This document shows, in pieces, positions 9,345-10,962 of a stretch of DNA of 26,501 nucleotides; position 1 is the stretch's first letter; each line of letters opens with the position of its first letter. A model generated the notes under the pieces. The model made no database searches. It saw only the letters and a list, made by a program, of their open reading frames with translations, and was not told where the DNA came from. Origin of the DNA: Patescibacteria group bacterium (GTDB lineage: Bacteria > Patescibacteriota > Microgenomatia > Levybacterales > UBA12049); NCBI GenBank assembly GCA_018900295.1, contig JAHIGH010000171.1, positions 1 through 26,501 of the forward strand, in the 5' to 3' direction. Both the position numbers and the translations under genes were made by a program.

Positions 9345-10169
9345 ATGTCTGCAACACAGAATCTAACAAAAGAACAAATAAGAGTATTAAAATTAATTAG
9401 CACAAATAACCTGGATTTTCAAAATATTAGCAAGAGTTCTCCTGAAAAAATTGATAGGTGGGTAAAACAATATTATCAAGATAAACCGGTAATAGACGAC
9501 TTAAATAACCAAGGAGTTCATATTACTAAATTATATGATCTGATGTACCCCGATTTTAGTGAAGAACAATATATTAAAGCAATTCCTATACTTGTTAAAT
9601 GGCTAAATAATAATGAATTACAAAATCATGTAAAAGCTTCTATCATTCAAGCGCTGATTGAAAAACCCGTTTCTAAAAATTATGCATTTGACGCTATTAT
9701 TAATATCTTCAAATCCACAGATAAAAATTATAGAGATGAATGGGGATTTCAAACTGACATGCCAATGATGCTTGGAAATGCGTTTAGATTATGGGTTGAT
9801 GATGATCATGCAGAGATTATTTTTAATTTATTGAAAAATAAAAAATTTAGAGAAGATGATTTTTTACTTGGTTCTCTAGCTAATTTCAAAAAACCTGAGA
9901 ATATCAAAAAAGCAACAGCGTTTCTAATGAAAGAACTACAAAAACCCAATATTTATAATGCCAGATTAGGTGCAATAATATCAACATTGAAAAAATTAAA
10001 AGCCGTAGAAGCAAGAGAATTAATATATCCATTCACTAATTTTCCTAATAATTATAAAAGAACTATAGAAATTGACCCGAAAAAATATGGGTATATAACT
10101 GATACCGAAATAAGAAACGAGGCCAAAAAAACAATAGCTAAATTTGACAAGCTGATCAATTCTAAATAG
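9345..10169 (+). CDS. Putative cognate immunity protein, HEAT/ARM-like helical repeats
   Basis: Starts 1 nt after the RHS stop, AT-rich, no signal peptide. Repeated amphipathic helices (KAIPILVKWL, VKASIIQAL, FLLGSLANF, AIISTLKKLKAVEA). Confidence 0.7.
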   Translation: MSATQNLTKEQIRVLKLISTNNLDFQNISKSSPEKIDRWVKQYYQDKPVIDDLNNQGVHITKLYDLMYPDFSEEQYIKAIPILVKWLNNNELQNHVKASIIQALIEKPVSKNYAFDAIINIFKSTDKNYRDEWGFQTDMPMMLGNAFRLWVDDDHAEIIFNLLKNKKFREDDFLLGSLANFKKPENIKKATAFLMKELQKPNIYNARLGAIISTLKKLKAVEARELIYPFTNFPNNYKRTIEIDPKKYGYITDTEIRNEAKKTIAKFDKLINSK

Positions 10170-10203
10170 CACATTTATAATTAATTGAGGGTTTAGACGG
10201 GGG
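10167..10203 (+). repeat. Cassette-junction motif, copy A
   Basis: TAGCACATTTATAATTAATTGAGGGTTTAGACGGGGG. 29/37 ungapped identity with 12927-12963. Confidence 0.7.
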
Positions 10204-10962
10204 CAGGGGAATATCCGTTTCCTGACCAACTCAGGCGGAGTCAATGTCAAAAACTATAATTACGATCCATTTGGCAATATCATAAACTCAAATGGGACTG
10301 GTAATACCAATTACCGTTTTAATACACAGCAGAACGATCCAGAATCAGGTATGTATTATCTCAGGGCAAGATATTACGACCCAACAACAGGAAGATTTAT
10401 CAGCCGTGATCCGGTCAGAGGCGTACTCACATCTCCTCAAAGCCAAAATGGTTATAGCTACGCCCACAATGATCCCATCAACCTTTCAGATCCATCTGGC
10501 AAAGCTGTACCTCTGCTAGTATATCTCGCGGGGGCCTGGGCTATCGCTGAACTTGGTCTGACTGCAGCAGATGCATATGATTTTGCGAATACAATGCAAG
10601 ATCCAAATGCGAACATCTGCGATAAAGCATGGAGCGGAGCACTATTTGCAGCCGGAATAATAGGGCCGGGAGGAGGGTATGGACAAGCTGCAAAAGGAAT
10701 TAAGTATGGAGAAAAAATTATAAAACAGATGGGTACTCGTGGATGGACACAAGAGGCAATAGAGACATTAATTAAAAATCCTGCCAAAACAATAGATGTA
10801 ACAGACACAAGACATTTACCAAGCGGAACACAATTAAATGATCCAGCAACAGCTTTTATAAATAAAGACGGAAGTTATGTCATAAGAAATAATAAAACTG
10901 GCGATGTAGTACAAGTAAGTAATAGGAATGACCCAAACTGGAAAGCTCCTTGGGATAAATAA
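10201..10962 (+). CDS. Orphan RHS-core fragment plus colicin E5-like tRNase C-terminal toxin (first in-frame ATG 10351)
   Basis: The frame is open from 10189 and RHS homology (GQGNIRFLTNSGG..NYNYDPFGN) starts near 10201. DPSG at 10489-10500. Tip KIIKQMGTRGWT...NDPAT...VIRNNKTGDVVQVSNRNDPNW matches remembered colicin E5 KIRGQMPERGWT...NDPAT...VVVNDRTGEVTQISDKTDPGW. Confidence 0.85.
   Translation, partial: GQGNIRFLTNSGGVNVKNYNYDPFGNIINSNGTGNTNYRFNTQQNDPESGMYYLRARYYDPTTGRFISRDPVRGVLTSPQSQNGYSYAHNDPINLSDPSGKAVPLLVYLAGAWAIAELGLTAADAYDFANTMQDPNANICDKAWSGALFAAGIIGPGGGYGQAAKGIKYGEKIIKQMGTRGWTQEAIETLIKNPAKTIDVTDTRHLPSGTQLNDPATAFINKDGSYVIRNNKTGDVVQVSNRNDPNWKAPWDK

Follow-up and report, generated by a model that had tools for sequence, protein, structure and literature searches.

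The RHS toxin array described here lies on contig JAHIGH010000171.1 of a Patescibacteria group bacterium (assembly GCA_018900295.1), where two of the three toxin cassettes that follow a full-length RHS gene are preceded by copies of the same 37-bp non-coding box. The window that we analysed is the whole 26.5-kb contig (26,501 nucleotides), which belongs to a metagenome-assembled genome of 1.57 Mb with 38% G+C and a completeness of 82.5%. The similarity is genuine and has sharp edges, and the box is private to this array, where it goes with the two cassettes that lack a leader. On balance it is probably a non-coding junction scar that was copied together with a stub of the RHS core when recombination enlarged the array. 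The present evidence points to an ordinary by-product of array growth, and a dedicated attachment site is unlikely.

The two copies of the box

The copies at positions 10167–10203 and 12927–12963 are identical at 29 of 37 positions (78%) without gaps, as the initial annotation of this DNA had claimed, and they differ at the other 8; in the 15 nt at the 5' end the identity reaches 14 of 15. When the 160-nt junction regions were dinucleotide-shuffled, the best 37-mer match was 20.7±1.1 and never exceeded 25 in 300 trials, so that the comparison with shuffled controls proposed in the initial annotation leaves a match far better than chance. Across the whole window, eight same-strand 37-mer pairs are identical at 29 or more positions, and these comprise six pairs of RHS core tails, one YD repeat and the box pair, which is the only one outside RHS sequence; order-1 Markov-randomised windows (n=3) contained no such pair. 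A chance similarity of the two boxes is ruled out by the shuffles together with the randomised windows.

Both copies lie in non-coding sequence downstream of unrelated immunity genes, a 274-aa open reading frame (ORF) for copy 1 and a WapI-like ORF for copy 2. This is the position originally described for them, with the nuance that the first three bases of copy 1 are still the TAG stop of the 274-aa ORF. Each ends in a run of G immediately 5' of a GGN AAY codon pair. Beyond the box, alignments anchored at the left edge (TAG) or at the right edge (G run) were no better than shuffles. An unanchored gapped alignment can be drawn between 10153–10211 and 12911–12974, but its extensions are also non-significant against shuffles, and a similarity that continues into the tail of the upstream immunity gene or into the GN codon was rejected on these grounds.

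Organization of the array

The features of the array are as follows.

4091–9343, + strand: full-length RHS toxin gene, encoding 1750 aa; the protein combines RHS repeats, a CARDB insert and a tip of the Tox-REase-7 family
9345–10169, + strand: immunity-like ORF of the main tip (274 aa), without a Pfam family
10167–10203, + strand: junction box copy 1; its first bases are the TAG stop of the 274-aa immunity-like ORF and it ends in a G run
10189–10962, + strand: leaderless orphan cassette A, with an RHS-associated core from GQGNIRF and a Colicin_E5-type tip
10969–11295, + strand: 108-aa ORF, presumed immunity gene of cassette A, without a family match
11298–11588, + strand: 96-aa ORF with paired cysteine motifs, possibly a stray immunity gene
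11585–12442, + strand: cassette B, a small but complete gene in which a signal-peptide-like leader precedes an RHS-associated core from YYLEDGLGNVRF and a tip
12445–12882, + strand: WapI-like immunity gene of cassette B (PF24716)
12927–12963, + strand: junction box copy 2, starting 45 nt past the stop of the WapI-like ORF and ending in a G run
12970–13531, + strand: leaderless distal orphan cassette, with a core from GNWRAANGQ (FGN register); a pseudogene

The distal cassette is the one termed copy B in the initial annotation and may also be called cassette C, while cassette B is used here for the leader-bearing gene at 11585–12442. A tblastn search with the main protein placed core tails downstream of the full-length gene at 10192–10509, 11696–12016 and 13015–13200, and the TIGR03696 Rhs_assc_core family is present in the main gene and in all three cassettes. 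The tips are all different: Tox-REase-7, Colicin_E5, the tip paired with WapI, and a distal tip without an assigned family. Small ORFs directly follow cassettes A and B, and the distal cassette has a broken tip with no immunity ORF behind it. The 96-aa ORF between cassettes A and B has two cysteine pairs that give it a zinc-ribbon-like appearance, its stop overlaps the ATG of cassette B (ATGA), and it may be an immunity gene that lost its toxin.

The best database neighbours of the RHS core in the window are Curtissbacteria/Patescibacteria metagenome-assembled genomes, and the relatives of the source genome all have genomes of 0.5–2.2 Mb. The window contains no type VI secretion system (T6SS) genes, and RHS is here of the Sec type, which sets it apart from the published orphan rhs systems. 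On the 3' side of the array the contig carries a ResIII-type enzyme, a DNA methylase, rpoB, rpoC and rpsL. The first two occupy 13604–18361, between the RHS array and rpoB-rpoC-rpsL, and consist of a helicase/endonuclease of 928 aa with a weak intein-splicing match and an N6/N4 DNA methylase; together they look like a restriction-modification pair inserted beside core genes.

Entry registers and the state of the distal cassette

The two boxes lead into the RHS core at different glycine-asparagine (GN) codon pairs. The frame of cassette A opens after TGA at 10186–10188 and reads GFRRGQGNIRF; its GN codons GGG AAT at 10207–10212 correspond to the LGNV register, and a second GN follows at 10273–10278. 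The frame of the distal cassette opens after TAG at 12967–12969, reads GNWRAANGQANIQMLYQGQQQDPES and carries GGC AAC at 12970–12975. We assign this GN to the FGN register because close homologues, found by phmmer in the full library at 74–87% identity, read across the junction as YDPF followed by GNWRAA (in full, ...EYDPF, then GNWRAA[KN]GQ.NIQMLYQ), and the TIGR03696 profile coordinates agree with this register. The same homologues and profile positions rule out that the second GN belongs to the first register, and with them the original claim that the two cassettes enter the core at two registers is upheld. The full-length gene was also said to have GGCAAC at both registers, and these were found at 8636–8641 and 8702–8707, 66 nt apart.

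The first in-frame ATG is at 10351 in cassette A and at 13009 in the distal cassette, 144 and 39 nt beyond the respective frame openings, and in the cassette frames stops occur inside or just past the box. Neither cassette has a leader or a start codon at its junction, and cassette B, with its own ATG at 11585 and a leader, is the exception.

The distal cassette is a dead pseudogene, with a frameshifted and shortened tip and no immunity gene. Compared with its homologue P0037, the tip at 13177–13531 is encoded in one frame up to 13386 and in another from 13403 to 13525, ending about 43 residues short of P0037 at about 13531, and no immunity ORF lies between the distal cassette and the next gene at 13604.

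Distribution of the box

Further copies, which the initial annotation had suggested looking for in the genome and its relatives, were not found: the 1.57-Mb assembly, searched on both strands with up to 11 mismatches or by short-word BLAST, yields two direct copies and no third, both at leaderless RHS cassettes. There was no copy in 244 other genomes of the order (degenerate 28-mer, up to 3 mismatches), in the species-representative genome collection (24-mer pattern with 20 fixed bases) or in class-level genome samples. In the JGI metagenome contigs the same 24-mer pattern gave a single match and no genuine copy. That match, at 2189–2212 of L019 (MDTG01212950.1), lies where the N-terminus of a protein is encoded (MFSMDSTFIINLGF...), on an unrelated AT-rich contig that has no RHS and whose ORFs contain serine and PRL repeats. 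It was judged to be a chance match, about that many being expected by chance. These pattern searches were strict and the nearest genomes were possibly masked, so they exclude close copies of the box and not diverged ones.

The box is found neither at the other RHS loci of the source genome (contigs C185 and C266) nor upstream of the leader-bearing cassette B. As a terminal repeat of an insertion sequence or miniature inverted-repeat transposable element it would be out of character, having no inverted partner and no dispersed copies in the assembly, which is 82.5% complete. Rather than occurring genome-wide irrespective of RHS cassettes, the box is thus specific to the boundaries of the two leaderless cassettes.

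Repeated junction boxes are not a general trait of related arrays either, being absent from those of two other genomes, G065 and G067, where ordinary tip displacement is seen and the orphan junctions differ from each other and from the box. In these sister species (L121 on G065:C19 and L122 on G067:C4) the tip and immunity pair of the G067 main gene is present in G065 as an orphan, whose core is cut at GDDFQYKGEQ and which now follows a tip that was inserted more recently, together with two new ORFs; another orphan, which begins DLEKVL, has kept an orthologous 90-nt spacer in both genomes. Homologues of the 274-aa ORF occur in a third genome, G007, at L132 (G007:C32) and L133 (G007:C10), with 47–49% amino acid identity and open frames of 432 aa. 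They sit among small unrelated ORFs with no RHS core nearby, in clusters that are possibly stand-alone immunity islands. The box is absent after these homologues, where DNA homology ends about 15 nt before the stop codon.

Proposed growth of the array by copying of a junction

The reading that we favour starts from an ancestral boundary that would have consisted of the stop codon of an immunity gene, a spacer of about 30 nt and a core stub cut near the first GN. As the array grew, the block of spacer and core stub would have been copied, likely by RecA-type recombination between repeated core segments, through either unequal crossing-over or cassette replacement between sister arrays. Later tip exchanges would have replaced, to either side, the tips, the immunity genes and the greater part of the core tails, so that a small island of similarity was left, and the distal copy would then have lost 66 bp in frame between two GGNAAY (GN) codons of the core, which would have given rise to the second register. 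We infer the duplication, its mechanism, the 66-bp deletion and the absence of a present function. We favour this sequence of events because it needs no new machinery, because it fits both the private distribution of the box and the dead distal cassette, and because it agrees with what has been published on displacement and on orphan modules (PMC2935791, PMC3150448).

A 66-bp deletion between short direct repeats would be the simplest explanation of the distal register, and it is plausible because the main gene has GGCAAC at both registers and because similar deletions recur in the family. The wider family comprises hundreds of small proteins built either as leader, core and tip or as leaderless core and tip, and its leaderless members mostly begin at the first register (xDGQGNIRF, MENVRF, MRFVTDE). 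In-frame deletions recur within the first 40 or so core residues, as in P0016 (GQ to GQ), P0027/P0163 and P0102. One family member, P0008, comes from another NCBI assembly and starts MEEGGL, directly followed by GNWRAAKGQ, a sequence that aligns to the distal junction read through its TAG. It has a different tip, and its core end is identical to that of the main gene of the window. Searches of 245 genomes from the order and 401 genomes sampled from the class did not recover it. Since P0008 enters the core at the second GN (GN2), a second-register joint seems to exist elsewhere. P0153, which is the nearest relative of P0008 (91%), and P0155, which is nearest to the distal core and is encoded on the same contig as P0008, both keep sequence upstream of GN2. 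The core-start deletions of P0016, P0027, P0163, P0102 and P0008 fall between short repeated motifs (GQ..GQ, Y..Y, GN..GN).

We looked for the origin of the box in RHS sequence itself. A decayed RHS core (the YYLEDGxGN stretch) found no support in anchored and local alignments to 14 real core sequences and to the main gene, which scored no better than shuffles, and neither did a decayed leader or 5' region of a small RHS gene like cassette B, whose alignments were likewise no better than shuffles. The idea of an RHS remnant had come from a likeness seen by eye, between TTTGAGGAGGGG and CTTGAGGACGGG and between MEEGGLGN of P0008 and LEDGLGN, which is not demonstrable by alignment.

Several points weigh against a copied scar. 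The continuation of the box into the GN codon or the upstream gene is statistically unsupported and no part of the box is traceable to the RHS core by alignment; because there is neither a significant extension nor an RHS-core derivation, the case for a single junction followed by a deletion rests on parsimony. A comparison of P0008 with its relatives P0153 and P0155 suggests that the second-register joint may have arisen more than once. The core tails of cassette A and the distal cassette are 67% identical overall and 55% identical at the third positions of conserved codons, and the box, at 78%, is better kept than these adjacent synonymous positions, which could be a sign of constraint instead of neutral decay, although replacement of the tails would also explain the difference. 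Two copies in one genome also leave room for a function. In favour of the scar, the cores of the array are mosaics with recent conversion tracts (37/37 for 10351 versus 11864, and 36/37 for 8723 versus 11804), so that the age of the flanks can differ from that of the box in either direction.

A possible shared 3' flank as a homology handle

The same island of similarity could have been produced if the box were a conserved 3' flank that travels with tip and immunity modules among sister arrays and acts as a homology handle, a possibility that we regard as doubtful. Incoming DNA would be anchored in the RHS core on one side, and on the other side would either pair within the box and stub or join illegitimately at the G-rich microhomology, which implies two independent joints, one for each GN codon. 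The G run that stands right before GGN AAY in both copies, the position of the box after two unrelated immunity genes and the better conservation of the box compared with nearby synonymous sites all accord with such a handle. So does P0008, which suggests a second-register joint in another assembly with a different tip, and a model of anchoring plus illegitimate joining has been published for effector/immunity arrays (PMC5361080). However, the flank of a mobile module should recur, and searches of the genome, the order, the species-representative collection and the JGI metagenomes brought up no further copy, nor do the immunity homologues in G007 have a box downstream. At 37 bp and 78% identity the copies are now also too short and too diverged for efficient RecA pairing.

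Possible expression signals and attachment sites

An expression signal was offered in the initial annotation as an alternative to a recombination or attachment site, and it would consist of a -10 element followed by a purine-rich, ribosome-binding-like sequence, through which the orphan cassette would be transcribed together with its immunity gene, or the tip translated internally at a low level. The motifs on which this was based are indeed there at aligned positions, with TATAAT at 10176–10181 in copy 1 opposite TAAAAT at 12936–12941 in copy 2 and then GAGG/AAGGA, and they are joined by the near identity of the 5' 15 nt (14/15). Internal promoters and non-ATG starts have a precedent in rhs orphans (PMC7043789), the P0008 ORF starts within the equivalent of the 3' end of the box, and cassette A has an in-frame CTG at 10222. 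Set against this, a consensus promoter scan found no promoter that uses TATAAT or TAAAAT, hexamers of a kind that is common in DNA of 38% G+C. The best -35 candidates are poor or misspaced, matching at 3/6 positions at 17–18 nt in copy 1 and at 5/6 only with a 20-nt spacer in copy 2, which leaves the -10-like hexamers without an adequate -35 at 16–18 nt. Neither copy has an in-frame ATG, GTG or TTG within 40 nt past the Shine-Dalgarno-like purines. Copy 2 would moreover drive a frameshifted, shortened tip without an immunity gene, and the box stands at no other gene of the genome, so we think an expression signal unlikely.

At the level of structure, the two copies have no fold in common on either strand. 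Of the four folds, three do not stand out from shuffles (z from -0.18 to +0.25); the exception is the minus strand of copy 2, at z -2.3, whose hairpin has no counterpart in copy 1. Neither copy shows visible dyad symmetry, and there are no inverted arms of about 11 bp around a 6–8-bp spacer of the Xer/dif type. With no Rfam match, no significant shared fold and no terminator at the box, an RNA element or terminator was ruled out.

A further reading is an attachment site, whether like integron attC, like Xer/dif or of another kind, used by a dedicated recombinase that inserts or parks cassettes. Its fixed 5' position at both leaderless cassettes and the sharp edges of the similarity are what such a site would show. 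The initial annotation had already held that the box fits neither integron attC nor a symmetric Xer dif site and that no recombinase is in the window, and we agree on both counts: there is no shared hairpin or dyad symmetry, and a family scan found no recombinase or integrase family among the ORFs of the 26.5-kb contig, whose ends limit this search. The neighbours are instead the ResIII/methylase pair, rpoB, rpoC and rpsL. There are two copies and none elsewhere, they differ at 8 of 37 positions, the leader-bearing cassette B has no box, one copy heads a dead cassette, and the related arrays in two other genomes have non-repeated junctions. A dedicated site is thus very improbable, and what stands of the original proposal of a recombination or attachment site is a plausible link to the history of recombination at this locus, for which a passive origin, as a copied scar or as a shared flank, gives the best fit; the dedicated site itself is unsupported, there being two copies, no recombinase and no inverted repeat.

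A broader version of the functional readings would make the box an element dedicated to cassette boundaries in the Sec-type RHS arrays of this lineage of the candidate phyla radiation, which we consider improbable. As a start box, with a -10 element and ribosome-binding purines and in some genomes an ATG, as the N-terminus of P0008 hints, it could turn parked tips into internally expressed modules resembling toxin-antitoxin systems. As a 3' handle it could allow whole tip and immunity modules to be swapped between arrays and joined at GN codons.

Comparison with known systems

Apart from one minor peculiarity that is private to the locus, this is an orphan-cassette array of the ordinary kind. 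Orphan rhs-CT/rhsI and cdiA-CT/cdiI modules are 5'-truncated fragments behind a full-length gene, with a variable stretch of core and no initiation signals (PMC2935791, PMC3150448). The array studied here resembles them in having a full-length gene followed by 5'-truncated core fragments with different tips, of which those of cassettes A and B have putative immunity genes behind them, and in its mosaic, recombining cores. It differs from them in that two of its fragments share a 37-bp non-coding box right 5' of their core stubs, a repeated spacer of a kind that these descriptions of orphan rhs and cdiA modules do not report (PMC2935791, PMC3150448), in that its host is an uncultured bacterium with a small genome, and in that one cassette is a complete leader-bearing mini-gene.

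In the T6SS immunity arrays of Vibrio cholerae, modules have been displaced sequentially by homology-facilitated illegitimate recombination (PMC5361080). The resemblance to those arrays lies in growth by insertion of new effector/immunity modules, which are anchored in a conserved region upstream, and in the short conserved stretches and gene remnants left at the boundaries. However, the V. cholerae remnants are the 3' ends of effectors together with a short region that is normally downstream of effectors, and are known from many strains (PMC5361080), whereas here there is one genome and the box is untraceable to any gene.

The main and orphan rhs tips of Salmonella have internal promoters and a CTG start, mapped by 5' rapid amplification of cDNA ends, and these signals are part of the coding sequence of the core, 89 nt ahead of the PxxxxDPxGL motif (PMC7043789). 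The cassettes studied here are likewise leaderless tips with an upstream -10-like sequence and purine-rich stretches. Unlike the Salmonella signals, the box is situated outside the core stub and is known here from sequence alone, and neither a convincing -35 nor a start codon goes with it. With integron attC it shares the character of a short element at cassette boundaries in a tandem array, but it forms neither an imperfect inverted repeat nor a hairpin, lies near no integrase and is present twice only, and one cassette goes without it.

Implications

Orphan toxin cassettes are regarded as a reserve from which tips can be switched, and the way in which their arrays grow is still largely inferred. 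A spacer that is repeated at two boundaries would record a growth step, namely a copied junction that was probably followed by a small deletion in the core. The processes of enterobacterial Rhs and contact-dependent inhibition loci would thereby also be at work in an ultra-small uncultured bacterium, in an RHS array that is Sec-dependent. If the box proved functional, as a promoter/start box or as an exchange handle, it would in addition provide a sequence tag with which such cassettes could be found and followed in metagenomes.

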